Below, piece by piece: positions 23,825 through 42,343 of a stretch of DNA of 64,000 nucleotides; the first letter of the stretch is position 1; each line of letters starts with the position of its first letter. The translations under genes and the position numbers were made by a program. Origin of the DNA: Occultella glacieicola (GTDB lineage Bacteria > Actinomycetota > Actinomycetes > Actinomycetales > Beutenbergiaceae); assembly GCF_004353825.1 (NCBI RefSeq), contig NZ_SMNA01000004.1, forward strand, positions 310,001-374,000. The letters are read 5' to 3'. Under the pieces are notes generated by a model. The model searched no databases. It was not told where the DNA came from and was given only the letters and a program-made list of their open reading frames with translations.

Positions 23825-23835
23825 GTCGCCGATAC

Positions 23836-24918
23836 ATGCGCATCACACAGGTCGAGTCCATCATTCTGCTCGAGCAGTTCCACATCGTGAAGGTCCACAC
23901 CGACGAAGGACTCGTCGGGATCGGTGAGGTCAGCCCCATGAAGGCCGCCGTGACGCACGCCATCGTCGAGCATGCGCTGGCGCCGCTGCTGGTGGGCGAG
24001 GACCCGGGAGACATCGAACGGCTCTGGCGTCGGATGTACACCAAGCCCTACAAGCTCGGACCGATGGGCGCCCAGCTCGAGGCGATCGCCGGCATCGACA
24101 TCGCGCTCTGGGATCTGCTGGGGAAGGCCGCGAACCTGCCCGTGTACGCGCTCACCGGCGGCACCTACCGCAACGGCACGAAGGTCTACGCGAGCTCGAT
24201 GTCGCGCAGCATGAGCCCGCAGGAGGAGGCCGAGCGGGCGGTGTCGTTCCAGGAGCAGGGCTATCACGGCTACAAGATCCACTCCTCGACCCCGTGGATG
24301 CATGACGACGGCTTCGATCAGACGATCGCGACGGTCGCGGCGGTCCGCACCGCGGTCGGCGACGACTTCCCGATCCTCGTCGACGTCAACAACGCCTACT
24401 ACGAGCACACCGCGATCCGGATCGCGCGCGAACTGGAGGCCTACGGGGTCTGGCACTTCGAGGAGCCGCTCGCCGCGCACGACTACGCCGCCTATGCCCG
24501 GCTCGCGGACGCCGTCGACATCCCCATCGCGGCGGGCGAGCAGGAGTACACGAGCTGGCAGTTCCGCGACCTGATCACGCAGGGCCGGGTCGACATCCTG
24601 CAGCCCGACGTCATCAAGTGCGGTGGCATCACCGAGTTCCGCAAGATCGCGGTACTCGCGGACGTCCACACGAAGCCGATCACGGTGCACAACACCCAGC
24701 AGACCATCGGCACCTCGGCACACGCGCACCTGTGGGTGAGTACGCCCTCGTGCGTGTACCCGCAGGAGTACAACATCGAGCACAACCCGGTGCTCGACGA
24801 CGTCCCGATCTGGACCAACCCTCTCGTCCCGGTCGACGGCGTCATCACCCCGTGGGACCTGCCCGGTCTCGGGGTCGAACTCGACGAGGACGCCGTGGCG
24901 CGGTTGCGAAGCAACTGA
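23836..24918 (+). CDS. mandelate racemase/muconate lactonizing enzyme family protein (acid-sugar dehydratase-like)
   Basis: IDIALWDLLGK; metal ligands D (VDVNN), E (FEEP), E (GEQ); QPD, H (VHN), PGLGVE. Confidence 0.92.
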   Translation: MRITQVESIILLEQFHIVKVHTDEGLVGIGEVSPMKAAVTHAIVEHALAPLLVGEDPGDIERLWRRMYTKPYKLGPMGAQLEAIAGIDIALWDLLGKAANLPVYALTGGTYRNGTKVYASSMSRSMSPQEEAERAVSFQEQGYHGYKIHSSTPWMHDDGFDQTIATVAAVRTAVGDDFPILVDVNNAYYEHTAIRIARELEAYGVWHFEEPLAAHDYAAYARLADAVDIPIAAGEQEYTSWQFRDLITQGRVDILQPDVIKCGGITEFRKIAVLADVHTKPITVHNTQQTIGTSAHAHLWVSTPSCVYPQEYNIEHNPVLDDVPIWTNPLVPVDGVITPWDLPGLGVELDEDAVARLRSN

Positions 24919-25024
24919 CGGCGAATCCTCCAATCGGAGCACCGCGTCGCGGCGACTCCGGCACACCGGCCCGCTCCTCGGCCGGCCCATCAACACGGCT
25001 CAGCACACAGGACAGGACGAACCA

Positions 25025-26350
25025 ATGGCGGTAGATCAGGTCTCACGACGATCGTTGCTCAAGACCCTGGGAGTGGCCTCCGGCGCTGCTCTCATCGGTG
25101 CCCCACTCGCCGGCTGTGGGGGCGGTGGTGGCGGCTCCGGCTCGGGGTCGGGCGGGACCTTCGCCTTCATGAGCTGGGACGCGACGTCCGACACGACCCT
25201 GTACCAGGTCGCCCAGAACTGGGCGGAACAGGCCTCCCGGGAGATCGACGTGCAGTCGGTCCCGGGCGGCGGCGACTACGAGACGAAGCTTCGTACCGTG
25301 CTCTCGTCCGGGGCCCACCCGGACGTCATCCGCATCAACGACGACTTCGTGCAGGCGTACTACAGCGAGGGCTCCCTGCTCGATCTCACGCCCTATCTCG
25401 AGCAGGACTCGATCGACGCGGACGACTTCTACCCGGTGGCCTTCAACTTCGCCAAGCAGGCCGACGGCGCCCATGCGGCCTGGCCGATCCTGACGAACCC
25501 CGGCGTCATCTACTGCAACGTCGACGCGTTCGAGGAGGCGGGGGTGCCGCTCCCACCGACTGACTGGGACGCCGACGGGTGGACCTGGGACGACTTCCTG
25601 GACGCCGCCACGAAGCTCACCAAGCCGGGCGGCGAACGCTGGGGCGCGCTGCTCTTCCACGACACCGCCCTGGAGACCGTCTGGCCGGTCAACAACGGCA
25701 CCACCGGCATCTACTCCGAGGACGCCCAGTCGTTCACGCTCGCCGACGAGGGCAGCACGGATGCCCTCCAGTGGGTCGCCGACCTGGCGCTCGTGCACGG
25801 CGTCCACCCGGACTTCGGCACGGTCAGCACCGGAAAGTCCACCCCGAACTGGGCCCAGTCCCTGTTCGGGACCGGGCAGGTCGCGATGCTCCTCGGGCTC
25901 ACCAGCTCGATCCCCTACCTCCGCGAGAACGCGGAGGTGAACTGGGACATCTTCCCGCCGCCGCAGCAGGCGACCCGGCAGACCGTGAACACCATGACGG
26001 TCCTGGCCGTGCCGTCCGAGTCGCCGGATCCCGACGCTGCCTGGGACTTCCTGAAGTACTGCGTCGGCCCCGAGGCCGCCGAGCTCTTCGCCGAGTCGCG
26101 CGGGTTCGTCCCGGTGGCCACCAGCTCCGCCGAGCTGTTCGTCGCCGACGATCAGGCGCCCCAGAACCTCGGCATGGTCAGCCAGGCACTGGCGAACGCC
26201 GTCAACGAGAACTTCGGGCTCTACATCGAGCGGGCGCGGACGGTCTACCGACCCGTGCTTGACGAGATCTGGAGCGGACGTCAGACCGCGGCGGACGCGC
26301 TCGGTGGCATCCGCGCCGAGGTCGAGGCGATCCTCGCCGGGCAGGGGTGA
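25025..26350 (+). CDS. carbohydrate ABC transporter solute-binding lipoprotein (Tat-type signal)
   Basis: SRRSLLK twin-arginine, lipobox LAGC, Gly/Ser linker, NVDAFEEAG, WTWDDFL, AAWDFLKY. Confidence 0.92.
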   Translation: MAVDQVSRRSLLKTLGVASGAALIGAPLAGCGGGGGGSGSGSGGTFAFMSWDATSDTTLYQVAQNWAEQASREIDVQSVPGGGDYETKLRTVLSSGAHPDVIRINDDFVQAYYSEGSLLDLTPYLEQDSIDADDFYPVAFNFAKQADGAHAAWPILTNPGVIYCNVDAFEEAGVPLPPTDWDADGWTWDDFLDAATKLTKPGGERWGALLFHDTALETVWPVNNGTTGIYSEDAQSFTLADEGSTDALQWVADLALVHGVHPDFGTVSTGKSTPNWAQSLFGTGQVAMLLGLTSSIPYLRENAEVNWDIFPPPQQATRQTVNTMTVLAVPSESPDPDAAWDFLKYCVGPEAAELFAESRGFVPVATSSAELFVADDQAPQNLGMVSQALANAVNENFGLYIERARTVYRPVLDEIWSGRQTAADALGGIRAEVEAILAGQG

Positions 26351-27402
26351 CCTTGAAGATCACCAGAGTGACGGTCGACGTCACCTCCGAACCCAAGGCA
26401 CACGCGATCCGGGATGCCATCCAGGTGCTCGATCGGAACGGGCGCTGCGACGTGACGATCGAGACGGACGCGGGCGTCAGCGGCACCAGCAGCACCTATT
26501 TCGGTCGCGTCGCCAGCTCACCCGCTCTGCTCGGCGCCCTCGTCACCGAACAGCTCGGTCCCGCGATCGTCGGCCAGGACGCCACGATGATCCGGCACAT
26601 CCGCGACCTGCTGCGGACGCTGACCGACTATCAGGGCACGGCGGGCCTGTCGACCTTCGGGATCTCCGCGATCGATCAGGCCCTCTGGGATCTGCTCGGC
26701 AAGTCGCTCGGGGTGCCGGTCTGGAGACTGTTGGGTGCCCAGCGGGCCGCGATCCCCACCTACGCGATGGTGGGGTGGCTCGAGCTGGACGTTCCGCAAC
26801 TGCAGGACGTCTGCGCCAGGGCGATGGAACAGGGCTTCCAGGGTGTGAAGATGAAGGTGGGCGGTGGCCCGCTCGCCGAGGACCTCGAACGGATCGGCGC
26901 GGTCCGTGCGGTGATCGGCGACGGGGTCCCCCTGATGGTCGACGCGAACCAGGCCTTCGACCTCGCCGAGGCGATCCGGCGCGGTCGCGCCTACACCGAT
27001 CTCGGTTGCCGGTGGTTCGAGGAGCCCCTCCGGGCCGCGGACACGGCGGCACACATCACGCTCGCCGAGAAACTCGACATCCCGATCGCGACCGGGGAGA
27101 ACCGGTACGGGCAGGAGCAGTTCCGGGACCTGTTCGTCGGTGGCGGCGTCGGCGTGGTCCAACCGGACCTGCGCCGGGCCGGCGGGCTCACCGACTGCTA
27201 CGAGATCGGCCTGATGGCGGCCGGCTTCGGCATCCCGTACGCCTCCCACGGCGGCGGCGCGCACATCCACGTCCTCGCGGCCCTGCCGAACACGATCTAC
27301 GTCGAGAGCGGGCTGCTGCCGGCGGACGGGTCGGTCACCCTGACCGACGGCTGCTACCCGCTGCCCACCGAACCCGGCCTGTCCTCCTGGAGCGCGCACT
27401 GA
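26347..27402 (+). CDS. mandelate racemase/muconate lactonizing enzyme family protein
   Basis: IDQALWDLLGK, KxK (KMKVG), VDANQ, WFEEP, TGEN, QPD, SHG, PGL. Confidence 0.92.
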   Translation: MTLKITRVTVDVTSEPKAHAIRDAIQVLDRNGRCDVTIETDAGVSGTSSTYFGRVASSPALLGALVTEQLGPAIVGQDATMIRHIRDLLRTLTDYQGTAGLSTFGISAIDQALWDLLGKSLGVPVWRLLGAQRAAIPTYAMVGWLELDVPQLQDVCARAMEQGFQGVKMKVGGGPLAEDLERIGAVRAVIGDGVPLMVDANQAFDLAEAIRRGRAYTDLGCRWFEEPLRAADTAAHITLAEKLDIPIATGENRYGQEQFRDLFVGGGVGVVQPDLRRAGGLTDCYEIGLMAAGFGIPYASHGGGAHIHVLAALPNTIYVESGLLPADGSVTLTDGCYPLPTEPGLSSWSAH

Positions 27403-28739: not shown

Positions 28740-28822
28740 GGGGATCACTCAACCGGTGTGAGCTGAGACGATCCATAGTTCAGGCTCTTGATTCCATGTG
28801 TGTACGTCTAGAGACTGGTGGC

Positions 28823-29785
28823 ATGGATGCGCTGACCGGACTGCTCGACGGACCTCGCGCGCGTGGCGCGTTCCTGATGCGCTCGCTGATGGAACCGCCG
28901 TGGGCGATCCGGATCCGGGACGAGGCTCCGCTGACGGTCGTGGTGATGACCAAGGGCACCGCCTGGATCCTGCCCGATGCCGGTGAGCCGGTGCGGCTGG
29001 ACGCGGGTGACCTGGCGCTCGTGCGCGGCCCGGAGTCTTACACCGTCGCCGAGCCGCCGGAGGCACCGATCGGCGTCTACATCAATCCGGGCCAGCACTG
29101 TCAGGCACCCGACGGCCGGTCCCTCGAGGAGGAGATGCTGCTCGGCGTGCGCACCTGGGGCAACGACCCGGCCGCGGCCACCGAGGTCATCACGGGTGCG
29201 TACGGGGTCGACGGTGAGGTCAGCCAGCGGCTCCTGGACGTGTTGCCGACCATCATCGTCATCCGGGCCGGCGACCCCGCGTCACCAGCCACCCTGACCG
29301 GACTGATCCGCGAGGAGATCATCAAGGACGATCCCGGCCAGGACGTGGTTCTGGACCGGATGCTGGACCTGCTCCTGATCGCGGTGCTGCGGAACTGGCT
29401 GGGGCGGCCCGAGGCGAACCCGCCGGCCTGGTACACGGCCAGTTCCGACCCGATGGTCGGGCACGCTCTTCGGCTGCTGCACAACAACCCCGACCACCCC
29501 TGGACGGTCGCCGGGCTCGCCGCCGAGTGTGGGGTGTCCAGGGCCGCGTTCGCGCGCCGGTTCACCGAACTGGTCGGCCAGGCCCCGATGGCCTACCTCA
29601 CGGACTGGCGGCTCACCATGGCGGCGGACCTGCTTCGGGAGCCGGACGCGACAGTGGCCGCCGTCGCCCGGCGGGTCGGTTACGCGAGTCCGTTCGCGTT
29701 CAGTTCCGCGTTCAAGCGCGTGCGCGGCATCAGCCCGCAGCGGCACCGCACCGGCGCCGCGCTCGCGGGCGTCGGGACCGACTGA
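28823..29785 (+). CDS. AraC family transcriptional regulator (cupin_6 type)
   Basis: MDALTGLLDGPRARGAF, PWTVAGLA...SRAAFARRF, YLTDWR, VGYASPFAFSSAFKR; divergent from nmrA. Confidence 0.93.
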   Translation: MDALTGLLDGPRARGAFLMRSLMEPPWAIRIRDEAPLTVVVMTKGTAWILPDAGEPVRLDAGDLALVRGPESYTVAEPPEAPIGVYINPGQHCQAPDGRSLEEEMLLGVRTWGNDPAAATEVITGAYGVDGEVSQRLLDVLPTIIVIRAGDPASPATLTGLIREEIIKDDPGQDVVLDRMLDLLLIAVLRNWLGRPEANPPAWYTASSDPMVGHALRLLHNNPDHPWTVAGLAAECGVSRAAFARRFTELVGQAPMAYLTDWRLTMAADLLREPDATVAAVARRVGYASPFAFSSAFKRVRGISPQRHRTGAALAGVGTD

Positions 29786-30748: not shown

Positions 30749-31519
30749 TCAGCGAGGGCCGCGGGCGCGGTCGCCATGCTGGTGATGGAACCGTACGCGC
30801 TGCCCGATCCAGACCGTGCGCGAGGCTTCGATGAGTGCGCCCTCGCTGTCGATACTGACGGCATTGACGACCATCAGGGGAGCCTCCTGCGGGCAGCGCA
30901 GGATCTCCGCGAACTCAGGGGATGCGGTCTCCGGATGGAGGTAGCTGTGTACTTCGGTCGCGACGATGCCGTACCGGCTCTCCAGGGTGGTGGACAGGGA
31001 CCCCTCGATGAGCGGCATGGACTCGATCCCTGGCGCGACGGCCGGTGCGAGCCAGGAATCGGACATGCCGATCGGGTTTCCGTCGACGAGTTGCAGGCGG
31101 CGGAACCAGCGTGGCCCGATGTCGCCGTGGGCGAGGTCCAGGTCGAACAACAGCGCGACGGGCGGCGCTCGAATGTGTTCGGTCGGGACCTCGACGGACG
31201 TCGCCTGCATCCCGGAAGTCGCGAGCCGGTCGCGCCAGGGCTGAGCGATCGCGAGATCGTGCTGGACCACCTGCACGGTCTCCGAGACGAACGTGCCCGA
31301 CCCCTGTCGACGATGGATGTAGCCCTCGTCGGCGAGCGAGCTCAGGGCCTGCCGGACCGTGATCCGGCTGACGCCGTAGTTCTCCGCCAACTCGTTCTCG
31401 CTCGGCAACTGCGCCCCGGACGCGAGTTCGCGTTGCTCGATCCGCCGCCTGATGTCACGGGCGATCTGCCCCCACCGTGCAACGGGAGACCGTCGATCCG
31501 TTGTCGCCGCCATAGTCAT
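30749..31519 (-). CDS. GntR family regulator, HutC/UTRA subfamily
   Basis: LPSENELAENYGVSRITVRQAL...GSGTFV wHTH plus UTRA-like C-terminal domain; start 31519 or 31513. Confidence 0.93.
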   Translation of the reverse strand: MTMAATTDRRSPVARWGQIARDIRRRIEQRELASGAQLPSENELAENYGVSRITVRQALSSLADEGYIHRRQGSGTFVSETVQVVQHDLAIAQPWRDRLATSGMQATSVEVPTEHIRAPPVALLFDLDLAHGDIGPRWFRRLQLVDGNPIGMSDSWLAPAVAPGIESMPLIEGSLSTTLESRYGIVATEVHSYLHPETASPEFAEILRCPQEAPLMVVNAVSIDSEGALIEASRTVWIGQRVRFHHQHGDRARGPR

Positions 31520-31585
31520 CCCCACCCGCTCCCGACCCGTGGGCAACTGTGCCATGCCCCGTGCCGCAAGAGTCCCGTACCGAAG

Positions 31586-31621
31586 TTGTCTTGACAAGGA
31601 TACCCTTAAAGGTACTAAGGT
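31586..31621 (+). promoter_or_regulatory. promoter of the 13-gene operon with HutC/GntR-type operator over the -35
   Basis: TTGTC-TT-GACAA palindrome at 31586-31597 contains TTGACA (31591-31596); AT-rich spacer; candidate -10 TACTAA or TAAGGT; RBS AGGAGG before 31656. Confidence 0.65.
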
Positions 31622-31655
31622 CCCTACAACCAGATGGGCGACCAGGAGGTGAACG

Positions 31656-32615
31656 ATGGACGACATCCGCCAGGTGGCACTCGGTCACGTCGTCATCGAC
31701 GACATCGTGCTCACGGACGGACGAGAACTGACGGGGATGCTCGGTGGCGCCGGTGCCTACGCCGCCCTCGGACAGGCGCTAAGCAGCGGCCGCAGGGTGG
31801 CCCTGCTCTCCGGGATCGGGGCGGACTTCCCGCCGGAGGCGGCCATGCACCTACGGGCTGCAGGCGTCGACCCCGACGCGTTGACCGTCCTGAACGAGCA
31901 CACCCCGCGGACCAGGATCCGCTACTTCGCGGATGGCGAGCGCGAGGAGTCGCCGGCGTACGGCATGACGCACTTCGTCGCCCTCGACCCGACCGCGGCG
32001 ATGCTGCCGCACGGACTCGGCGACCTGTCCGGGGTCTATGCGTTCGCTTCGGTCGAGGACCCGCTCTGGCAGGACGTGCCCGATCTCGCCCGGACGAGCG
32101 GCGCCACTCTGCTGTGGGAGATCCACGCCGACTCGTGCGCGCCGGGCCGGTTCGACGAGGTGGCGGCCCGGTTGGCCGAGGTCGACATCCTTTCCCTCAA
32201 CCGTGCCGAGGCGCGGAACTTGTGTGGCAGCGCGGACCTGACCGTGTGCCTCCGTCGGCTCCTGGAGCACGTCGGCGTGCTCGCGCTGCGGCTCGGGTCG
32301 GACGGCGCGCTTGTCGCCACCCGCACGCGCGTCGCCCGCGCGCGACCCGCGGCGCGAGCCGTGATCGACCCGACCGGGGCCGGCAACGCGTTCAGCGGTG
32401 CGCTCGTCGGCGCGTGGCCCGCCGCCACCACCGGCGAGGAGACAGACCTGAGGTCCCCGCTGGCAGCAGCGATGGCAGCCGCGGCCCTGACCATCGACCA
32501 GTACGGCCCGCCACCGGTGACCGAGTCGGTGCGCGCCAGTTTTCGCGCGCTGGCCCGCTCGGTCGAGGTCACCCTCGCACCCCTCGACTCCCTACAGAAC
32601 GGAACACAGCTGTGA
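31656..32615 (+). CDS. PfkB family carbohydrate kinase, MAK32-like (GAGN anion hole)
   Basis: LGHVVIDDI...LGGAGAYAALG, SLNRAEA, LRLGSDGA, IDPTGAGNAFSGA. Confidence 0.85.
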   Translation: MDDIRQVALGHVVIDDIVLTDGRELTGMLGGAGAYAALGQALSSGRRVALLSGIGADFPPEAAMHLRAAGVDPDALTVLNEHTPRTRIRYFADGEREESPAYGMTHFVALDPTAAMLPHGLGDLSGVYAFASVEDPLWQDVPDLARTSGATLLWEIHADSCAPGRFDEVAARLAEVDILSLNRAEARNLCGSADLTVCLRRLLEHVGVLALRLGSDGALVATRTRVARARPAARAVIDPTGAGNAFSGALVGAWPAATTGEETDLRSPLAAAMAAAALTIDQYGPPPVTESVRASFRALARSVEVTLAPLDSLQNGTQL

Positions 32616-33724
32616 TCAACCCGAACGCCCTGCACGATCAGGTGACCAGCCTGCCTGCCCTGATCAAGGAGCAGACCTGGCGCCTCGAGGAGGACCTGCG
32701 CAAGTCCGTCCCCACGCCGGTCCAGCACGCGATCCGACACGTCGTGCTCACCGGTTCCGGTGACTCGGCGATCGCTGGCCTGGCTGCCGAGCAGACGTTC
32801 CGGCGGTTCGTCGGCGTGCCCGTGTACGCCGGTGAGTCGCTCGCCGTAAGCAGGTTCCTGCTCGACTCCTATGGCAACGAGTACCCGCACACGCCGATGC
32901 TGCTCGCCACGTCGAACTCGGGCGAGGTCGCCCGGGTCGTCGAGGCAGCTCAGCGGGCCGCCGCGGCCGGCGGCTACGTCGTCGGCCTCACCGGGAACGC
33001 GCAGTCGCGGCTGGCCCGGACATCGCAGAGCATCGTCGACGTAGGGGCGCCCGCGTTCCCGGCCGCACCCGGGATGCGCAGCTACGTCATGGCCGTCCTC
33101 GCGCTCAACCTGTTCGCGATCCGGTTCGCCGAGGTGCGGGGGCGTATCACCATGGATGAGGCGCAGGCGCTGCGCGGCGAACTCGCCGGACTCTCCGACG
33201 TGGTTGAGCAGGCGATCGTGACGGCCGATGCTCCGCTGCGTTCCTTGGTGCAGGACTGGCGCGACCTCCAGGGGGTGGAATTCCTCGGCTCGGGGCCGTC
33301 GCGCGCTTCTGCGGCGTTCGGGGTGGCCAAGATCCTCGAGGCCGTCGGCAAGCAGTCTGCCCACGTCGATCTCGAGGAGTTCATCCACCTGAACTACTTC
33401 GAGCGGGCGGCCACCGGCATCGGCACCGTCGTACTGGCGCCGGCCGGCTCCCCGGTCCGCAGCCGCGCGGACGAGCTCGCGCCACTGCTGAACAACCTCG
33501 GCCGGCCGTGGGCCGCCATCGGCTCGGTCACCGACGCGCCCGTCAGCATCGAGATCCCGCAGGTGCGGGAGGAGTTCGCCCCGGTGGTCCAGGCCGCCGT
33601 GCTCGGTCTCCTCGCCGCTCACCTCATGGACGCAACGGGGGAGGAGCCGGGCCGCGGCGCCGTCGGCCCATGGGCGGATTGCGCGGACGGCGCCACCACC
33701 CGCGACAGCCAGATCGTCCTCTGA
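32612..33724 (+). CDS. SIS-domain protein (GlmS C-terminal/FrlB/AgaS-like isomerase or deglycase)
   Basis: GTG overlaps the kinase stop; LTGSGDS, SNSGEV, LTGNAQSRLA, second SIS FLGSGPS...AKILE, LEEFIH. Confidence 0.88.
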   Translation: MINPNALHDQVTSLPALIKEQTWRLEEDLRKSVPTPVQHAIRHVVLTGSGDSAIAGLAAEQTFRRFVGVPVYAGESLAVSRFLLDSYGNEYPHTPMLLATSNSGEVARVVEAAQRAAAAGGYVVGLTGNAQSRLARTSQSIVDVGAPAFPAAPGMRSYVMAVLALNLFAIRFAEVRGRITMDEAQALRGELAGLSDVVEQAIVTADAPLRSLVQDWRDLQGVEFLGSGPSRASAAFGVAKILEAVGKQSAHVDLEEFIHLNYFERAATGIGTVVLAPAGSPVRSRADELAPLLNNLGRPWAAIGSVTDAPVSIEIPQVREEFAPVVQAAVLGLLAAHLMDATGEEPGRGAVGPWADCADGATTRDSQIVL

Positions 33725-33752: not shown

Positions 33753-34172
33753 ATGACCAGCCGCCACCCACTACAGACCAATGGCAACGAGGCCTACGAC
33801 ATCCAGCCCGAGATCAACGACGCGGTCACCGAGAGCGGCGTCCAGGAGGGCCTGGTGACGATCGTCGCACCACACACCACCGCGGCGCTCGGAATCATCT
33901 CCTACCACGACCCGCTCGGGCTCGAGGACGTGATGGACGAGTTCCAGCGCCTGGTTCCTGCGCGGATCACCTTCAAGCACGAGCACGACACTCCGCAGGA
34001 CGCAGCCGGACACGTGCTGTCGACGATGGTGGGACCGACGCTCACGCTGATCGTCACCGGCGGCGAGGTGCTCCTCGGGCACTCCCAGAAGGTGTTCTTC
34101 CTCGAGTTCGATGGTCCCCGCAGGCGCCAGTTCTTCGTCAAGGTCACCGCCGACCCGACCCCCGGGGCCTGA
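33753..34172 (+). CDS. yjbQ: YjbQ/UPF0047 family protein (divergent)
   Basis: PHTTAA, FKH, AAGH, LLG..Q.VFFLEFDGPRRR. Confidence 0.88.
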   Translation: MTSRHPLQTNGNEAYDIQPEINDAVTESGVQEGLVTIVAPHTTAALGIISYHDPLGLEDVMDEFQRLVPARITFKHEHDTPQDAAGHVLSTMVGPTLTLIVTGGEVLLGHSQKVFFLEFDGPRRRQFFVKVTADPTPGA

Positions 34173-34175
34173 CCC

Positions 34176-35120
34176 ATGGACGCCGTCGACGCGATCGAGC
34201 CGCACCCGAGAACGACCGGCCCGGACGACGTGCTCGGTCGTTACCGGTACGCAGCGAACATCCCCGCCAACGGGCTCATGATCGATGGCCGGCCGGCCCT
34301 CACCCAACTCGACCCATCCCGGATCGGGCGGTACGTGCTGCTCGTCGTTCGCGACCCCTTGTGCGCCTACGACGAGGACCCGGCCGCCCAGTTCGCCGCC
34401 GAGCTCGACGACGCGGAGCTCGTGGGTCGCTCCGGGATGTTCACCACGTATTCGGGGACTTACGGCGATGCCCCGGTGACCGTGCTCAGCGGGGGATCGG
34501 GCGGCCCCGAGGTGGAGCTCGCGCTCATGGAACTGTTCGAGCACACGAACGCGGACACTTTCATCCGGGTCGGTGGTTCCGGAGGCATGCACGCCCGCGT
34601 GCAACCGGGCGACCTCGTCATCGCCACCGGTGTGGTTCGCGACGAGGGCGTCAGCCAGGCGTACATCCCGCAGGCCTATCCGGGCGTCTGCTCGCCGGAG
34701 GTCGTGCTCGCGCTGACGCAGGCCGCGGCCGGTCACGGCGCACCGTTCCACCTCGGACTCACCCGGTCCACAGACTCGGACTTCGTGGCCGGCGGCCGGC
34801 CCGCTGCGCGCGGCTACTTCCAGCCCGCCCATCTGGACCTCGTGGAGACCTGGACCAGGGCCGGCGTCCTCAACGGAGATCGCGAGTCCGCGGCGATCGT
34901 CACCCTCGCGAGCCTGTTCGGGCTCCGTGGCGGCTCGATCTGCTCGGTCGCCGACAACATCGTCACCGGCGCGAGGTTCATGCCGGGGGCCGGTCACACC
35001 GACGCGATGAGGGTCGCGCTCGACGGTGTCGCCGTGCTTCACGCCATGGATCGCGCGCGCGAGGCCGCCGGGCTTGCCATGTGGATACCAGCGCTCTCCG
35101 AAGCGGGTGGGTCCGCATGA
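34176..35120 (+). CDS. nucleoside phosphorylase (PNP/UDP family), uridine-phosphorylase-like but divergent
   Basis: GSGGPEVELALMEL, FIRVG, PGDLVIATGVVRDEGVSQAY, GDRESAAI, SVADN. Confidence 0.85.
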   Translation: MDAVDAIEPHPRTTGPDDVLGRYRYAANIPANGLMIDGRPALTQLDPSRIGRYVLLVVRDPLCAYDEDPAAQFAAELDDAELVGRSGMFTTYSGTYGDAPVTVLSGGSGGPEVELALMELFEHTNADTFIRVGGSGGMHARVQPGDLVIATGVVRDEGVSQAYIPQAYPGVCSPEVVLALTQAAAGHGAPFHLGLTRSTDSDFVAGGRPAARGYFQPAHLDLVETWTRAGVLNGDRESAAIVTLASLFGLRGGSICSVADNIVTGARFMPGAGHTDAMRVALDGVAVLHAMDRAREAAGLAMWIPALSEAGGSA

Positions 35121-36040
35121 GAACGGTCCTTGTCGACGGCGGACTGAGCCGCGACCATCTGGTCACCGTCGGTCAGCCGCCCCGCTTCGACGAGCCGGGC
35201 GGGCCGGGCGTCTACGCGAGCCTGGCTGCGGTCCTCGCGGTCTCGCTGCTGCGGCATCGGAGTGCGGAATCGATGCAGGTGGCGCTGAGCACGACCCTGC
35301 CGAGAGCCGATGAGGACATTCGGGCGGTGCTCGCCGGGGCGGGCGTCGACCTCAGCCTGTGCGTGGACGGCCCGGCGATCCCGAAGCTCTGGATCCTCAA
35401 CTCCCCGCAGGGGCGGCGGATCGTGCGGACTGCTGCGTCGGCGACGGCACACGAACTCGACGAGACGGACGACCTGGGGACTGCGCCACCCGCCCAGCTG
35501 GGCGCCACCGCGCCCGATGTCCTACTCCGGTGTGCGCCCACCCGGGCGCTCGAAGGTCGACGCCCGGCGGTCACGCTCGTCGACCCGGACCAGCAGTCCC
35601 TGGCGGTCGGCGGCTGGGACTACGTTGCCGAACTCACCCCACGGACCGACGTCTATCTGCCAAGTCGTGTGCAACTGACCCAGCTCGGTGCCGACCCGGT
35701 GGAAGCGGCGTGGGAACTGCGGCGCAGGACGGGCAGGTCGGTGGTCGCCAGGCTCGACGCCGAGGGATCCCTCGTCCTGCCCCCCGGCGGGGGAGCCTGG
35801 CGGGTCGCCGCCGGGACGGTCGACGTCGAGGAGACCACAGGTGCCGGCGACAGTCACGCCGGCGCGTTGGCGGCCGCACTGGCGCAGCCGGGCACGACGC
35901 TCGTCGACGCAACCCTGATCGCCACCGCAGCCGTCGCCCACAACCTTGCGGCGCCCGGAATCGCCGGCCTGATCGGCGGCGACGAGATCACCGAGAACGA
36001 GCTGCGCGGCATTCGCGTGGAGGAACAGGAGCAGCCGTGA
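35117..36040 (+). CDS. PfkB family carbohydrate kinase (divergent)
   Basis: ATG overlaps the previous stop; PGGPGVYASLA, YLPS, VARLDAEGS, ETTGAGDSHAGA. Confidence 0.82.
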   Translation: MRTVLVDGGLSRDHLVTVGQPPRFDEPGGPGVYASLAAVLAVSLLRHRSAESMQVALSTTLPRADEDIRAVLAGAGVDLSLCVDGPAIPKLWILNSPQGRRIVRTAASATAHELDETDDLGTAPPAQLGATAPDVLLRCAPTRALEGRRPAVTLVDPDQQSLAVGGWDYVAELTPRTDVYLPSRVQLTQLGADPVEAAWELRRRTGRSVVARLDAEGSLVLPPGGGAWRVAAGTVDVEETTGAGDSHAGALAAALAQPGTTLVDATLIATAAVAHNLAAPGIAGLIGGDEITENELRGIRVEEQEQP

Positions 36041-36960
36041 CCGACCAGCACACCGCAGCCGCAGCACTCGGCGGCCTCGCAGTTCCCGACATCACGCCAC
36101 TCGGCGGGCGCCGGGCTGCCTTCCTCGGCTGCGGAGACTCACTCGCGGCCGCGAGAGGGGCCGAGGCCGACGGGCATCGGGTCCTGTCCGCCGGTGACGT
36201 CGCCTGGAGCGGCAGCGCCCCTCGCGGGGTCGACCTGGTGGTCCCGCTGTCCTGGTCCGGGCGGACCGGGGCGACGATCCGCGCAGCCCAGGTGGCCAAG
36301 GACGCCGGCCTACCGGTCCTGTCGATCACCTCCAACCCTGCCTCCCCACTGGCCGAGCTCTCGGACGAGCACATCGCCCTGCCTCCCAACGACATCGCCG
36401 AGGACATCCCGGCGATCGGCTACGCGCTGCACTCGTCCGCGATCGCACGGCTGGTCGGCCTCGCCAGTCCGGACCCCGCCACCCTCGCCCGGGACTGGGC
36501 CGATGCCGGACAGGGCGTAGCCCGTGTCGTCACGGCCGCGGGCGGTGAACCGGCCGGGATCACGATCGCGAGCATGCCGGACGCACACGGCGCCGCCGAG
36601 TTCTGGATGCTCAAGATCATCGAGGCCACCGGCATCACGGTCCGGACCGCGTCGATCGAGGAGATCGGTCACGTGGACTACTTCCTCGGCCCGCAGGCCC
36701 ATCTGACCCTGATCGTCTCTGGCGCTGCCGACGCGCCCCGGGCGGACGGGCTCGGTGCCGCGCTGGGCCGCAACGGCCAGCGCGTGGTCCAGATCCGGCT
36801 CAGCGACTTCACCGCCGCGGCTGGGACCGAACGCGAGATCCTCGGCGGTCTCATCGGCGCCGATGTGGCCGCCGGTCTCGCGGTCGCGTGGGGCAGGCCC
36901 CACTTCAGAGGCGGCGTCGTCGACATGTCGGCGCAGCACATCCAGGTGCCGGTCGCCTGA
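36037..36960 (+). CDS. SIS-domain protein (second, shorter paralog)
   Basis: GTG overlaps the previous stop; FLGCGDS, LSWSGRT, ITSNPASPLA, LKIIEATG, IEEIGH. Confidence 0.85.
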   Translation: MTDQHTAAAALGGLAVPDITPLGGRRAAFLGCGDSLAAARGAEADGHRVLSAGDVAWSGSAPRGVDLVVPLSWSGRTGATIRAAQVAKDAGLPVLSITSNPASPLAELSDEHIALPPNDIAEDIPAIGYALHSSAIARLVGLASPDPATLARDWADAGQGVARVVTAAGGEPAGITIASMPDAHGAAEFWMLKIIEATGITVRTASIEEIGHVDYFLGPQAHLTLIVSGAADAPRADGLGAALGRNGQRVVQIRLSDFTAAAGTEREILGGLIGADVAAGLAVAWGRPHFRGGVVDMSAQHIQVPVA

Positions 36961-37008: not shown

Positions 37009-38361
37009 ATGAAGAACATCAGAAGGACCCTTCGGGTCACCGCGGCCGCCGCAGCGATCACGCTATTGGCGGCCTGCGGCGCGGGCGGTGAAGGATCGTC
37101 CGACGGGCGTGAGGAACTCGAACTCTGGTTCTGGGGTGCCACGCCGGCGCAGCGGGCGGCCCTCGAGGAGAACCTCGTCGACGCCTACAACGCCTCGCAG
37201 GACGAGTACACCCTGACGGTCACGTTCAACGAGCGCGTCGACAGCAACATCCAGACCGCGCTCGCGGCCAACGAGGGACCGGACATCGTCTATGGCTCGG
37301 GCCCGTCGTTCGTCTCGCCGTTCGCGCAGAGCGGCAAACTCCTGAACCTCGACGAATACTCCGAGCAGTACGGCTGGCAGGACCGGCTCCTGGCACCGAT
37401 CTACGAGTCCGGCACCGTGGACGGCAGCCTCTACGCCGTCGCCAACTCCATCAACACGGTCGGGATCTTCTACAACCAGGCGGTCCTCGACGACCTCGGA
37501 GTCGGCGTTCCGACCACCATCGAGGAACTTGAGACGGCGTTGGCCGCCGCCCAGGACGCGGGACTCTACCCGTCGGTCACCGGGAACAAGGGCTGGCAGC
37601 CCGTCAACGAGAACTACTCCTCGATGTTCCTGACGGCGGTCGCCGGCCCGGACGCGATGCATGACGTGCTCACCGGCGCGGCCTCGTGGACGGACCAGCC
37701 CTACGTCGATGCCGTCCAGATGAGTGCCGACTGGTACGAGAACGGGTATCTCGGCGGCGGCCAGTACACCAACCTCAACTTCCTCGAGTCCATGCAGCTC
37801 CTCTCGGACGGGCAATCCCCGTTCTTCTTCGGACCGACGCTCGCGTTCCAGTTCGCGGCCGAGTTCTTCAACACCGAGAACGGCAACGTCGACGATCTCG
37901 GCTTCATCCCGTTCCCCACGGTCGGTGCGGAGCTCGAGTCGCCCCTGTACACGCTGGCCACCACCGCGTCCTTCTCGATCAACGCCCAGTCCGAGCATCC
38001 GGATGCCGCCGCCGAGGTCATCGACCACATGCTGACCGAGGACTTCATGAGCACGATGACCGCGCAGTGGCCCGGGTACTGGGGTGTCCCGCTCGCAGGG
38101 GTGGAACTCGACCCGGCGCAGTTCGACGGGCTGTCGGCAGCGTATGTAACCGCGCTCGTCGACATCCTCACCGCCACTGAGGAGGGTCGCTTCGGGTACT
38201 TCACCGGCACGTTCTTCCCACCCCAGACCCAGCAGGCCCTGGTTGACATCGACACGGTGTGGACCGGTCAGGCCGACGCCGAGACCTTCCTGACCGGCAT
38301 CGAGACCACCTTCGCCGCCGAACTCGCCGACGGTGCGGTCCCACCGATCCCGGCGCCCTAG
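37009..38361 (+). CDS. carbohydrate ABC transporter solute-binding lipoprotein
   Basis: Lipobox LAAC, GPDIV, GSLYAV, IFYN, SEHPDAAAE; RBS GAGGAG. Confidence 0.93.
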   Translation: MKNIRRTLRVTAAAAAITLLAACGAGGEGSSDGREELELWFWGATPAQRAALEENLVDAYNASQDEYTLTVTFNERVDSNIQTALAANEGPDIVYGSGPSFVSPFAQSGKLLNLDEYSEQYGWQDRLLAPIYESGTVDGSLYAVANSINTVGIFYNQAVLDDLGVGVPTTIEELETALAAAQDAGLYPSVTGNKGWQPVNENYSSMFLTAVAGPDAMHDVLTGAASWTDQPYVDAVQMSADWYENGYLGGGQYTNLNFLESMQLLSDGQSPFFFGPTLAFQFAAEFFNTENGNVDDLGFIPFPTVGAELESPLYTLATTASFSINAQSEHPDAAAEVIDHMLTEDFMSTMTAQWPGYWGVPLAGVELDPAQFDGLSAAYVTALVDILTATEEGRFGYFTGTFFPPQTQQALVDIDTVWTGQADAETFLTGIETTFAAELADGAVPPIPAP

Positions 38362-38370
38362 CAGTGGTGA

Positions 38371-38407
38371 CGGGTGGGTCGCCCACGCAGTGCGGCCGAC
38401 CCACCCG
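38371..38407 (+). terminator. intercistronic stem-loop after the SBP gene (partial terminator or mRNA stabiliser)
   Basis: CGGGTGGGTCG...CGACCCACCCG 11-bp stem. Confidence 0.55.
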
Positions 38408-38430
38408 AACCCGCAGGAACGGAACGACTC

Positions 38431-39357
38431 ATGACAGTTCTGAACTCTGTGCAGCCTGACGCCGACACCGCGACCGTCAAGGATGCCCGTCGTGGACGGG
38501 GACATGGTGTCCATTACCTACTCCTGGCGCCGGCGATCCTGCTCTCGATGGCGATCGTGCTCGTTCCCGGCGTGTTCACGTTGGTCACCTCGTTCACCGA
38601 CTGGAACGGTGTCGCGGCCGACCCGGAGTTCGTGGGCGTCGAGAACTACGCGGCGATCCTCGCGGATCCGATCTTCCGGACCGCCGTCGGGAACAACATC
38701 ATCTGGACCCTGTTGTTCCTGACCATCCCCGTTGTCCTCGGGTTGGGCGTGGCGTTACTGCTGCTTCGCCGGCCGCGCACGCGCGGGCTCTACCAGGTCA
38801 TCTTCCTGCTGCCCTACGTGATGGCCGCGGTCACGAACGCGATGGTCTGGCTGAACATGATCTACAGCCCCATCTCCGGAGTGATCGGGTTCCTGAACAA
38901 GCAGGGCTGGGACATCGACTCGCCGATCTCCAGCCTCGACGGCGCGATCTACGCGGTGGCCGCCGTCGACATCTGGCACTACTGGGGCTTCCTCCTCGTC
39001 GTCTACCTCGCGGCGCTGCGACAGACGCCGGTGGAGCAGATCGAGGCGGCCCAGCTCGAGGGAGCCAACTCGTGGCAGGTGTTCCGCTACGTCTACCTGC
39101 CGAACATCCGCCCCACGATGCAACTCATGTTCGTGATGATCATGATCTTCTCCTTCCTCACGTTCGACTACATCTTCCTGATGACCCAGGGCGGACCCGC
39201 CAACTCCACGGAGATGCTCAGCACGTTCGCCTACAGCCTCGCGTTCGCGACGTTCCAGTTCGGAAAGGCCGCGGCCGTCGGCATCGTCATGGGTGTGTTC
39301 GGGCTCGTCGCCTCCGTCATCTACACCCGCATGAGCCGGAGAGGCATGGACGTATGA
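38431..39357 (+). CDS. carbohydrate ABC transporter permease (MalF-like)
   Basis: SFTDWNG, EAAQLEGAN, GGPANSTE, FGKAAA. Confidence 0.93.
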   Translation: MTVLNSVQPDADTATVKDARRGRGHGVHYLLLAPAILLSMAIVLVPGVFTLVTSFTDWNGVAADPEFVGVENYAAILADPIFRTAVGNNIIWTLLFLTIPVVLGLGVALLLLRRPRTRGLYQVIFLLPYVMAAVTNAMVWLNMIYSPISGVIGFLNKQGWDIDSPISSLDGAIYAVAAVDIWHYWGFLLVVYLAALRQTPVEQIEAAQLEGANSWQVFRYVYLPNIRPTMQLMFVMIMIFSFLTFDYIFLMTQGGPANSTEMLSTFAYSLAFATFQFGKAAAVGIVMGVFGLVASVIYTRMSRRGMDV

Positions 39358-40190
39358 GCCGCAGCTCGAACCGGGCGCTGCGGGCGACCCCCGGTCACAT
39401 CATTCTCATCCTGCTCGTGTTCACGGCGCTGTTCCCGATCGTGCTGGTGCTGCTGAACAGCCTGAAGGATGCCCCGGAGGTGGTGCGCAATCCACTCGCG
39501 CTGCCCGAGTCCCCGGACTGGTCGAACTTCGCCGAAGCGTGGCAGTACGCCGGATACACCCGCGGATTCGCCAACAGTGTGCTGCTCACTGCCACGACGG
39601 TCGCGACCGTGCTATTGACCGCGGCGCCGGCGGCCTACGTGCTCGCTGCTCGCAAGATCAAGGCGGCCGGCCCGGTGATGATCTATCTCATGGTGGCCAT
39701 GACGGTGCCGATCCAACTCTTCCTGTTCCCGCTCTACGCGGTGTTCGCCCGGCTCGGCCTGCTCAGCAACGTCGTCGCCGTCGGCGTGATCGTCGCCGCG
39801 ATCAACATGCCCCTCGCCGTCATGCTGCTGCGCACGTTCTTCCTGCGGATCCCGAGCGAACTGCCGGAGGCCGCCACCATGGACGGCGCGAACACCTTCC
39901 AGGTGCTCCGGCACGTGCTGGTCCCTGCCGTCTCGCCCGGCATGATCACCGTCGGCATCATCGTAGGGCTGAACGCCTGGAACGAGTACCTCATCTCGGT
40001 GACGTTCCTCCAGCGGGAGGAGAGCTACACCGCCACCCTCGGGTTCCTGTCCCTGACCGGAACGTTCGCGGTCGACCAGGGGGTCCTGATGGCCGGCGCG
40101 GCCATCCTGATCCTCCCGATCGTCTTCCTCTTCCTAGCCGCCCAGCGCAAGTTCGTCGACGGTCTCGTCAGCGGTTCGGTCAAGGGGTGA
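39354..40190 (+). CDS. carbohydrate ABC transporter permease (MalG-like)
   Basis: ELPEAATMDGA, WNEYL, QRKFVDGL..GSVKG. Confidence 0.93.
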   Translation: MSRSSNRALRATPGHIILILLVFTALFPIVLVLLNSLKDAPEVVRNPLALPESPDWSNFAEAWQYAGYTRGFANSVLLTATTVATVLLTAAPAAYVLAARKIKAAGPVMIYLMVAMTVPIQLFLFPLYAVFARLGLLSNVVAVGVIVAAINMPLAVMLLRTFFLRIPSELPEAATMDGANTFQVLRHVLVPAVSPGMITVGIIVGLNAWNEYLISVTFLQREESYTATLGFLSLTGTFAVDQGVLMAGAAILILPIVFLFLAAQRKFVDGLVSGSVKG

Positions 40191-40201
40191 TCCCGGTGGT
40201 C

Positions 40202-42343
40202 ATGAAAGAGCAGGACTACACGGAACGCACGTATGCGGGGGTACTCGGGAAGATCATCGGCGTCTACCTGGGGCGCCCTGTCGAGGGCTGGCCCTACGCC
40301 GACATCGCCGAGCGGTTCGGGACGTTGACGCACTACGTCAACGACCAACTCGGGATCCCGGTCGTGACCGCGGATGACGACATCTCGGGCACGTTCGCGT
40401 TCTCCCGCGCGGTGCTCGACCACGCCGGCACCGGGCCGCTCAACGCCCGGCAGGTCGGCGAGACCTGGCTCAACTACATCGTCGAGGACCGCACGATCCT
40501 GTGGTGGGGCGGACGTGGGCGATCCACCGAACACACCGCCTATCTGAACCTCAAGAACGGCGTGCCCGCGCCCGGATCGGGCTCCGCGCGACGCAACGGG
40601 CGGACCCTACCCGTGCAGGTGGGCGCCCAGATCTTCGTCGACGGCTTCGCCATGATGAGTCCCGGTGACCCGGACCGGGCCGCTGCCCACGCCCGGGCGG
40701 CGGCCTCCGTGAGCCACGACGGCGTGGCCGTGGATGCGGCCGCGTTCATCGCCGCGATGGAGGCACTCGCCTACATCGAACCCGACCTGCACGTCCTGAT
40801 CGAGACGGGACGGACCCAGGTCAAGGATCCGGTCCTGCAGCAGATCATCGACGACGTGCTGACCTGGTGCGCGCCAGGCGCCGACTGGCGTGGGGTCCGG
40901 GACCGGATCGAGCAGACGTACGGCTACTCCGTGTTCCACGGCCCGTGCCCGGCCACGACCAACAACGCCGCGGTGCTCTCGGCCCTTCTGCTCGGTGGCG
41001 ACAGCTTCCACCGGGCCGTCTCGATCGCGTCCTCGGCCGGCTGGGACACCGACTCCAACGCCGGCGTGGTCGGCGCACTGAACGGGATCAGACTCGGGCT
41101 CAGCGCCCTGGACGCGGAGGCGGACCTGCGCTCGCCGGTGGCCGACCAGTTGCTGGTGGTGACCGCGGACGGTGGGGAGTGCATCTCCGACGCGGTGCAG
41201 CAGACGCGGGCCATCACGGCCGGCAGACGCCTCCTCGACGGTCTCCCACCTGCGCCTCGGCCGGCACGATTCGCATTCGAACTGCCCGGCTCCGTGCAGG
41301 GCTTCGCCCCGTGCCCGGACGTCGCTTCGCCCTACACCCGGGTAGCGGTCGCCAACGTCCACCCGCGCCCCGGCGGACGGGTCGGCCCGGATGCGGGCGG
41401 CCTGGTGATCACGTGCGCGGGCATCGCCGAAACGGTGCCCGCGGCCGTCTCCACCCCGGTGTTCCTACCGAGGGCCGCGGACGGGGACAACTTCTCGACC
41501 ATCGCCAGCCCGACCCTCTACCCCGGGCAGCGCGTCCGGTTGACTGCCCGCCTCGCGGCGCCCACGTCGCAGGCAGGCCCGACGCTGCGCCCGTACGTGC
41601 TCACCGAGGCTGACGCACGGATGGTGGCGACGTTCGGTCCCGACCTCCTCCTGGCGGAGGAGCCACGCGAGGTGGTCTGGGAGGTGCCCGAGGTCGGTGC
41701 GAACCCGATCCTGCGACTCGGTGTGGCGGTGACCTCCACGAGCCGGTTCGACGGCGACGTGGTGCTGGAGCGGGTGGACTGGTCCGGCGCACCGGTTCGC
41801 CACGCCCGGTCCGGCGTCCTGATGACCTCGATCTGGGACCTCACCCCGGAGCCGCTGCGGGCGTGGGTGAGCTCGGCGAAGGACTTCGAGGCCGACTTCA
41901 GGTACTCCTACTCCGTGTCCCACCCCGAGGGGACCGGATTGGCGACCATCGGCACCCGGGACTGGGACGACTACACGTTCTCCTCGACCCTCGTGTTCAA
42001 TCCCCACGAACGCGGCGGCCTGGTGGTCCGGGCCCGCGGACACCGCCGCTACTACGCCGCGGTGTTCGAGTCGTGGCAGCGGATCTCGTTGGTGCGCCGC
42101 GACCACGACCGTGAGGAGATCCTCGCGAGCGCACCCTTCACGTACGCCGAGGACGTGCCCTATCGGGTCACGGTGAGCTGCCATCGGGACCGGCTCACGG
42201 TCAGGATCGACGACGCCGAGGTCCTGACCGCCTCGGACGACGCCGCGAACGCGCACTCGAGCGGAGGCGCGGGCTTCCTCGTCACGACCGGCACCGTGCT
42301 CGCCGACGGCTTCGAGGTCGGTTCGCTCGGGCCGGACCGATGA
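40202..42343 (+). CDS. ADP-ribosylglycohydrolase (ARH/DraG) family protein with long C-terminal beta-rich extension
   Basis: YAGVLGKIIGVYLGRPVEGW, ADDDIS, SHDG, GWDTDSNAG metal-binding motifs in the first ~320 aa; ~390-aa tail ending WDDYTFS...GGAGF. Alternative GTG start at 40187. Confidence 0.88.
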   Translation: MKEQDYTERTYAGVLGKIIGVYLGRPVEGWPYADIAERFGTLTHYVNDQLGIPVVTADDDISGTFAFSRAVLDHAGTGPLNARQVGETWLNYIVEDRTILWWGGRGRSTEHTAYLNLKNGVPAPGSGSARRNGRTLPVQVGAQIFVDGFAMMSPGDPDRAAAHARAAASVSHDGVAVDAAAFIAAMEALAYIEPDLHVLIETGRTQVKDPVLQQIIDDVLTWCAPGADWRGVRDRIEQTYGYSVFHGPCPATTNNAAVLSALLLGGDSFHRAVSIASSAGWDTDSNAGVVGALNGIRLGLSALDAEADLRSPVADQLLVVTADGGECISDAVQQTRAITAGRRLLDGLPPAPRPARFAFELPGSVQGFAPCPDVASPYTRVAVANVHPRPGGRVGPDAGGLVITCAGIAETVPAAVSTPVFLPRAADGDNFSTIASPTLYPGQRVRLTARLAAPTSQAGPTLRPYVLTEADARMVATFGPDLLLAEEPREVVWEVPEVGANPILRLGVAVTSTSRFDGDVVLERVDWSGAPVRHARSGVLMTSIWDLTPEPLRAWVSSAKDFEADFRYSYSVSHPEGTGLATIGTRDWDDYTFSSTLVFNPHERGGLVVRARGHRRYYAAVFESWQRISLVRRDHDREEILASAPFTYAEDVPYRVTVSCHRDRLTVRIDDAEVLTASDDAANAHSSGGAGFLVTTGTVLADGFEVGSLGPDR

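Follow-up and report, generated by a model that had tools for sequence, protein, structure and literature searches.

The PfkB Gene and Its Anion-Hole Motif

Can a protein of the ribokinase (PfkB) family that has lost its catalytic aspartate still act as a kinase and, if so, on what? The question is raised by a PfkB gene at positions 31656–32615 (+) of a 64,000 nt stretch of the Occultella glacieicola genome (contig NZ_SMNA01000004.1, positions 310,001–374,000; hereafter the window). In ribokinase-family kinases the Asp that closes the GXGD anion-hole motif is regarded as the catalytic hallmark, and the product of this gene (P0001, 319 aa) belongs to a large clade, under selection, that replaces it with Asn. 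The gene was recognized from the list of open reading frames (ORFs), its translation and a match to Pfam PfkB (PF00294; 5.3e-19, 69.1 bits against a cut-off of 25.8) covering residues 16–285. A longer ORF in another frame (31634–33724) is a composite, and is genic only in its distal part, where it encodes the downstream protein SIS1 (see later).

Residues 9–17 (LGHVVIDDI) and 29–36 (LGGAGAYA) hold the sugar-binding Asp15 and the lid-hinge dipeptide Gly30-Gly31 (31698–31748, +). In a MAFFT alignment to E. coli RbsK, a reference whose gene identity and coordinates were verified, these pair with Asp16 and Gly41-Gly42, and Asn182 and Glu185 of the retained Mg/ATP-phosphate motif NXXE (Asn182-Arg-Ala-Glu185; 32199–32210, +) pair with Asn187 and Glu190. 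Both of these family features are thus present, and what is lacking is the catalytic Asp at the end of the GXGD anion hole. The motif stretch AVIDPTGAGNAFSGAL reads DPTGAGN (GAGN), with Asn at position 244, encoded by AAC (32385–32387, +) and sharing a column with RbsK Asp255. The replacement was pointed out in the initial annotation, and the translation, the codon, the RbsK alignment and the Asn found throughout the clade all bear it out, as they do its remark that the other two PfkB genes of the operon keep the Asp (TTGAGD in PfkB2, TTAAGD in the ribokinase). In passages of a study of human ribokinase (PMC12621476), the equivalent residue, D269, is termed catalytic and lies 2.5 Å from the 5-OH of ribose. 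Since the replaced Asp touches the acceptor hydroxyl in ribokinase, the change to Asn falls at the point of chemistry.

Asp and Asn codons are one base apart (GAC vs AAC), a point in favor of a sequencing error, or of a recent mutation that inactivated an ordinary ribokinase or fructokinase. However, the orthologue from Occultella aeris (93% identity) has the same AAC beside a synonymous ggg/gga change, so that the Asn has been read independently in two assemblies.

Distribution of the Asparagine

A word-indexed search returned 35 relatives, of which the 33 closest (P0005–P0037) carry G[AG]GN and the two most distant GAGD. Asn244 is invariant in all 33 sequences of the clade alignment (A2). 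The initial annotation had named an Asp in close orthologues as the observation that would undo it; the orthologues, that of O. aeris included, have Asn instead. In an index-free HMMER search, 1.84 billion representatives (an unbiased set, clustered at 50% identity) yielded 1668 matches at E ≤ 1e-3 and 291 at E ≤ 1e-10, and the motif was read in the best 150. Among these, 136 have Asn and six have Asp, while four are fragments without the site and four have aberrant C-termini.

One of the representatives, P0186, is a fungal protein from a species of Xylariaceae. A search for its homologues gave 418 matches, and the fungal counts given here rest on the 120 listed, P0186 among them. Asn is present in 118 of these 120, and wherever the source is named it is a filamentous ascomycete (Pezizomycotina). 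The fungal members are 330–385 aa long and share Asp15, the GG dipeptide, Tyr35, Arg85, Tyr90, Phe107, Trp154-Glu155, NXXE and GxGN, whereas Arg96 is not kept among those listed. With Asn in 136 of the best 150 representatives and in 118 of the 120 listed fungal relatives, the replacement is clade-wide and therefore selected rather than accidental. Asn at the site of the catalytic Asp occurs far beyond chance, and is a trait of a clade that spans bacteria and filamentous fungi.

A likeness of the N-terminus to a fungal PfkB subgroup, labelled MAK32, had been proposed in the initial annotation. The likeness is real, as this sister group shares both the N-terminal features and the Asn, but the MAK32 label is tentative: no Mak32 name appears among the 120 listed fungal matches or in the atlas clusters, which carry generic PfkB names only. 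Among the open-access papers listed there was nothing relevant on MAK32 together with PfkB, ribokinase or carbohydrate kinase, and in those listed for MAK32 by itself the term was mostly the catalogue number of an assay kit. The fungal group is possibly the CDD 'MAK32' group (cd01943). It has the same motifs and lies in the same Asn clade, and differs from the bacterial proteins in the missing Arg96 and in having no operons.

Phylogeny and Family Assignment

A FastTree phylogeny of 183 rows was built from 161 full-length matches, 11 PfkB paralogues of E. coli K-12, 10 paralogues from the O. glacieicola genome, and PfkB2. Branch supports are SH-like only, and the E. coli gene names, except for rbsK and yegV, were assigned from coordinates. 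One branch with a support of 100 unites 160 rows (152 Asn, seven Asp and one Gln), and all 21 reference kinases fall outside it. Within the branch, four Asp-type rows are basal and two more, one of them green-algal, are nested among Asn forms. PfkB2 is placed inside the branch beside P0113, in a join flagged as long branches meeting. P0186, the sole fungal row, lies inside the Asn clade, poorly resolved near its base. The tree requires five state changes at this position, compared with a mean of 29.2 when the states are shuffled.

Profile scores agree with this placement. The best NCBIfam match of P0001, a partial one, is ribokinase (TIGR02152), with 46.2 bits where the cut-off is 299.65; next come fructokinase NF006957 (33 bits, cut-off 450, also partial) and the ATP-dependent ribose-1-phosphate kinase NF053626 (32.1 bits, cut-off 330). 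The similarity to E. coli YegV, which has the Asp, reaches 23.9 bits (E = 0.004), and P0001 falls outside a YegV-like group as well. By sequence comparison, P0001 is thus placed in a large clade separate from the canonical Asp-type paralogues. Clustering with canonical kinases, which the initial annotation had given as a ground for abandoning its proposal, is not what the tree or the profile scores show, and an identity as a canonical ribokinase or fructokinase is rejected on both counts. With scores far below the ribokinase and fructokinase cut-offs, the same codon in an independent assembly and the Asn counts given above, a sequencing error or a recent inactivating mutation can be regarded as refuted.

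Conserved Motifs, Glu155 and Predicted Structure

For each position conserved in at least 85% of the 152 Asn-type rows, the residues of the 30 Asp-type rows were set alongside. The motifs for ATP and sugar are strongly retained in the Asn-type proteins: Asp15 in 93%, Gly30 and Gly31 in 99%, Asn182 in 91%, Glu185 in 98%, Gly214 and Gly217 in 99%, and Gly241 and Gly243 in 100%. This retention bears on whether the protein could be a catalytically dead pseudo-kinase that binds nucleotide and sugar and acts as a subunit for regulation, sensing or scaffolding. The clade as a whole lacks the general base, as such a role would allow. However, pseudo-enzymes usually erode several motifs, while here NXXE, the anion-hole glycines, the GG dipeptide and Asp15 are kept at 91–100%, and the position of the lost Asp is held strictly as Asn instead of varying.

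The comparison also picked out positions specific to the clade, namely Trp154 (92% of Asn-type vs 0% of Asp-type rows), Glu155 (100% vs 7%), Glu98, Ser180 and Arg212. Glu155 (motif LWE; codon at 32118–32120, +) is found in all 152 Asn-type rows, and Trp154 and Glu155 together in all 120 of the listed fungal relatives. At position 155 the 30 Asp-type rows have Asp (23), Asn (four, all ribokinases), Glu (two) or Thr (one), the two with Glu being those nested within the Asn clade. The signature of the clade, as read from these alignments, is WE with GxGN, where canonical kinases show xD with GxGD. It is possible that a carboxylate, and perhaps with it the base function, has moved from the anion-hole motif to the strand bearing Glu155, the invariance of which within the Asn clade makes it the candidate for a relocated general base. 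The A181 loop of human ribokinase lies near the region equivalent to Glu155; according to passages of PMC12621476, A181 lines the sugar pocket and its counterpart in ketohexokinase, K174, is about 5.3 Å from the substrate.

An AF2 model computed from alignment A2 had a pLDDT of 94.6 and a pTM of 0.93. Foldseek returned at least 500 matches, and those listed at ranks 1–48 are all ribokinase-family kinases, the model having the alpha/beta fold and beta-sheet lid of this family. The best match, 3kd6, is the same by fold (Foldseek 1.9e-18, TM 0.77–0.82) and by sequence among PDB entries (3.4e-18 for P0001 alone, 1.9e-34 when the clade profile is used).

Gene Neighborhoods and Natural Fusions

Among 41 related genomes, a true orthologue was found in the O. 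glacieicola genome itself and in one congener (one of three congeners, none of the 37 other relatives). A scan of one genome per species gave 73 loci in Actinomycetota, Chloroflexota, Spirochaetia and Alphaproteobacteria, with strains of Streptomyces, Arthrobacter and Agromyces among the carriers; the search pattern held TG[AG]GN, so this set is biased to Asn forms and is used for context only, not for counting Asn against Asp. Patchy among relatives, yet found in near-identical layouts in four phyla, the gene cluster seems to have spread horizontally.

Neighbors were counted by tblastn of the window genes against the 73 loci. The most frequent is a divergent, uridine-phosphorylase-like member of the PNP_UDP_1 family (34176–35120, +, in the window; identified by Pfam, NCBIfam and alignment), found at 58 loci and lying directly downstream (<400 bp) of the Asn-type gene at 30 of them, which makes it the likely functional partner. 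An IU-type nucleoside hydrolase is found at 56 loci (adjacent in 48), followed by YjbQ (54), the binding protein (52) and permeases (48) of an ABC importer, an ADP-ribosylglycohydrolase (45), SIS1 and a GntR homologue (31 each), PfkB2 and SIS2 (29 each), adenosine deaminase (15) and ribokinase (nine). At four loci (L077–L080), none of these neighbors was detected by tblastn. Pfam annotation of the ORFs in three clean loci (L083, L055 and L026) confirmed the layout and showed duplicated ADP-ribosylglycohydrolase and IU-hydrolase genes in Chloroflexi, where two long ADP-ribosylglycohydrolase paralogues stand side by side. The locus of Actinomyces urinae has a gene of the nucleoside 2-deoxyribosyltransferase family. 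The high-GC loci L062 and L036, in which ORFs were called on the wrong strand, were left out of this annotation, as was L050. The expectation in the initial annotation that the operon would be informative about function is well founded.

The 56 full-length loci divide into those with SIS1 alone (24), those with PfkB2 and SIS2 alone (22), those with both (four, the window lineage included) and those with neither (six), so that SIS1 is nearly exclusive with the PfkB2–SIS2 pair; PfkB2 is always accompanied by SIS2. These counts bear on the suggestion, made in the initial annotation, that the Asn-type protein is a non-catalytic partner of PfkB2 (35117–36040, +). The two proteins, both encoded in the operon, have complementary defects, with NXXE but no Asp in the Asn-type protein, and GAGD but SRVQ in place of NXXE in PfkB2. 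However, PfkB2 is missing from 44 of the 73 loci, and is present in 26 of the 56 that are full-length, while the Asn-type gene persists, and the fungal relatives exist alone. In PfkB folds, moreover, both motifs belong to the active site of one chain, which makes complementation across subunits unlikely. A heterodimer with PfkB2 is accordingly very improbable, and as a general role for the clade the suggestion fails.

Natural fusions also link the Asn-type protein to the PNP-like enzyme. Two proteins (P0041, 622 aa, and P0325, 629 aa; 62% mutual identity) join an Asn-type PfkB domain to a PNP_UDP_1 domain, and both have DPTGAGN. One of the two came from a dedicated search for longer fused forms, in which no other architecture turned up. 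The Asn-type PfkB can be counted as core to the operon and is probably tied in function to the PNP-like enzyme. A complex prediction for the two proteins (alignments A2 and A4) scored 0.00, and was counted neither way. More distant Asn-type fusions (P0119, P0135, P0145 and P0164) carry PHP phosphoesterase, M20-like or SAM-methyltransferase domains, and the variety of partners indicates that the Asn-type fold is used in several different contexts.

Adjacency and fusion to the PNP-like enzyme would also fit a pseudo-kinase that acts as its regulatory subunit, and a precedent exists in plastid FLN1 and FLN2, which excerpts of PMC3409070 describe as PfkB proteins with a non-kinase role in the PEP complex. 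On the other hand, the distant fusions to a PHP phosphoesterase or a methyltransferase suggest a step in a pathway. Taken with the retained motifs described above, a dead kinase is rather unlikely, although of the alternatives considered it deserves the most attention.

The frequency of YjbQ, annotated by NCBIfam as a secondary thiamine-phosphate synthase, invites another explanation, in which the Asn-type protein phosphorylates an acceptor for which no base is required, such as a phosphate, carboxylate or amine; for example, it might convert ribose-1-phosphate to a ribosyl diphosphate for YjbQ. An anionic or amine acceptor would remove the need for Asp, which would itself repel an anion, and the conserved lid residues Arg85 and Arg96 could bind phosphate. 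Within the superfamily, ThiD offers a parallel, as it has no such Asp and likewise transfers phosphate to a phosphate group. However, the combination of Asp15 with the GG dipeptide is the pattern of proteins that bind hydroxyl sugars. The operon looks catabolic rather than biosynthetic, and Arg96 is not kept in the fungal relatives. This explanation is therefore improbable.

Proposed Role of the Asn-Type Protein

We favor an active enzyme, because selection has maintained all the motifs that bind ATP and sugar, and because Asn alone takes the place of the Asp. On sequence grounds, the Asn-type PfkB may well be an ATP-dependent kinase with re-wired catalysis, acting on a ribosyl compound that the PNP-like enzyme makes or consumes; we would put the chances of this at about even. 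The operon encodes three to four kinds of enzymes that cleave ribosyl bonds, and is read here as a system for riboside catabolism, possibly of a compound with several ribosyl links. In such a scheme, the sugar-type ABC system would import the riboside, and the Asn-type protein would bind ATP and a ribose-type sugar. It might phosphorylate the riboside to a 5'-phosphoriboside, to be cleaved next by the PNP-like enzyme, or alternatively phosphorylate the ribose-1-phosphate that the PNP-like enzyme releases. Glu155 or, as the initial annotation proposed, the substrate itself would take the place of the missing general base.

Several points weigh against an active kinase of this kind. When the Asp of a PfkB kinase is mutated to Asn, little activity is usually left, and a binding-only or regulatory role is possible for that reason. 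The pairing of Glu155 with Asn244 traces to essentially one event, as independent contrasts number three, of which one agrees and two are unchanged, and it is thus not independent statistical evidence; the Asp-type rows nested in the clade also keep Glu155. No solved structure was seen to belong to the clade; of the 79 PDB profile matches, the motif was read in the best two (3kd6 and 4e3a), and both have GAGD. The bias of the locus set toward Asn forms, mentioned above, should be kept in mind here too, and both the substrate and the order of the kinase and PNP-like steps are guesses.

A bolder version would extend the active-kinase reading to an entire branch of the ribokinase family, one that ranges from soil bacteria to moulds and probably takes in the orphan yeast MAK32 type. 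This branch would have re-wired phosphoryl transfer by dropping the GXGD Asp, with Glu155 or the substrate as the base; one such substrate would be the phosphate acceptor ribose-1-phosphate, turned into an activated ribosyl diphosphate for YjbQ. Its members would cooperate with a PNP/UDP-family enzyme of a new type, as parts of a pathway, so far undescribed, for breaking down an imported compound that carries several ribosyl groups. In this full form the proposal is doubtful. The replacement points to either an unrecognized mode of phosphoryl transfer in the ribokinase fold or a widespread family of ligand-binding pseudo-kinases. Open-access full text yielded no description of an Asn-type PfkB clade or a PfkB pseudokinase, nor of an operon combining an ADP-ribosylglycohydrolase, a nucleoside hydrolase and a PfkB protein, and nothing relevant on UPF0047/YjbQ. 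The operon and the PNP-like fusions provide the first concrete, testable context for Asn-type proteins, the fungal ones included, and solving a single member would annotate many genomes.

The Operon in the Window

The Asn-type gene is the first of a tightly packed, co-directional run with many 4-base stop/start overlaps. Upstream and divergent is a gene for a GntR/HutC-type regulator (30749–31666, −), in which NCBIfam PhnF/HutC-like matches begin at about residue 55, and translation probably begins at a later codon than the first ATG. SIS1 (32612–33724, +), a protein with two SIS domains that resembles sugar-phosphate isomerases and deglycases, follows the Asn-type gene and has a GTG start that overlaps its stop codon (GTGA). 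The next gene encodes YjbQ/UPF0047 (33753–34172, +; Pfam 9.7e-32, TIGR00149).

The PNP_UDP_1 protein that comes after it belongs to a divergent subfamily in which conservation is high (mean column identity 62% across 37 sequences) and the N-terminus is extended by about 60 aa. Compared with the uridine phosphorylase 3qpb, the SREY stretch reads SGMF and the base-binding stretch differs as well (TRSxDSDF...GRP); these stretches probably include residues that contact phosphate or base. The O. glacieicola genome has two PNP_UDP_1 genes only, one of them in the operon. A DeoB-type phosphopentomutase (TIGR01696) had no match in this genome, which is 100% complete, but neither did it in the control genome of Corynebacterium glutamicum, so its absence is not diagnostic and was not used as evidence.

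PfkB2, identified by sequence comparison and alignment, also departs from the canonical PfkB pattern. It resembles E. coli YegV (3e-07, GAGDSHAG). In its family, PSRVQL replaces NXXE in 22 aligned rows, with Ser183 in at least 90% and Arg184 invariant; in YegV the motif reads NRQE. PfkB2 is followed by SIS2 (36037–36960, +), recognized by Pfam and NCBIfam as having a single SIS domain, and by a CUT1-type ABC importer (37009–40190, +), assigned by family matches and consisting of a binding protein (37009–38361) and two permeases (38374–39357 and 39354–40190). The nearest solved relatives of the binding protein, where named, bind oligosaccharides.

The remaining genes of the run encode an ADP-ribosylglycohydrolase-family protein, a ribokinase, a nucleoside hydrolase and an adenosine deaminase. 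The first of these (40187–42343, +; 718 aa) matches Pfam ADP_ribosyl_GH over residues 18–310, while Pfam matches nothing in residues 322–718 (about 400 aa), and the PDB holds no sequence match to the full-length protein. The ribokinase (42340–43245, +) is of the canonical type, scoring 275.2 bits with TIGR02152 (cut-off 299.65) and grouping with E. coli rbsK. The IU-type nucleoside hydrolase (43242–44192, +) matches Pfam IU_nuc_hydro at 1.6e-79. For the adenosine deaminase (44036–45235, +; NF006850, 464 bits, cut-off 419) the start is uncertain, with the family match beginning at about 44231.

Comparison with Known Systems

The closest solved relative, 3kd6, is an AMP-bound PfkB 'nucleoside kinase' of Chlorobium tepidum from structural genomics. 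The GG hinge, the lid arginines, NXXE and DPTGAG are common to both proteins, but its motif is the canonical DPTGAGD and its identity to P0001 is about 25%. Ribokinase (E. coli RbsK, human RK) has the same fold, with Asp16, GG, NXXE and the anion hole all aligning, and a ribokinase-type gene is also present in the operon. Besides having Asp255 where P0001 has Asn244, RbsK differs in the pocket residues Lys43 and Asn46, which correspond to Ala32 and Tyr35.

ThiD and ThiM, of the ribokinase superfamily, are active kinases with Cys in place of the motif Asp. They belong to other families (Phos_pyr_kin / HK) with other substrates, however, and Cys can act as a base, while Asn cannot. The archaeal ribose-1-phosphate kinases of the pentose bisphosphate pathway are PfkB proteins that act directly after a nucleoside phosphorylase, which is one of the two orders proposed above. 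P0001 nevertheless scores below the cut-off of their profile (NF053626), and the operon showed no ribose-1,5-bisphosphate isomerase.

The logic of the proposed pathway is similar to that of pseudouridine catabolism (PsuK and PsuG), in which a riboside is imported and phosphorylated by a PfkB kinase, and its ribosyl bond is then cleaved to release a ribose phosphate. The E. coli yegTUV module shares with the operon a YegV-like PfkB (PfkB2), an ADP-ribosylglycohydrolase like yegU and a GntR regulator like yegW. PsuK and YegV both keep the catalytic Asp, however, and the operon adds the PNP-like enzyme, the IU-hydrolase, YjbQ and the SIS proteins. Passages of PMC10819704 treat yegTUV as an orphan module with gene functions still unassigned.

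Flanking Genes

Immediately downstream of the operon is a convergent ORF (45249–46196, −) that weakly matches APH(3')-like phosphotransferases (29.5 bits, cut-off 205). On the upstream side, an unrelated cluster of the sugar-acid type (23083–27402, +) has two genes of the MR_MLE enolase superfamily flanking an ABC binding protein, together with an AraC/cupin regulator (28796–29785).

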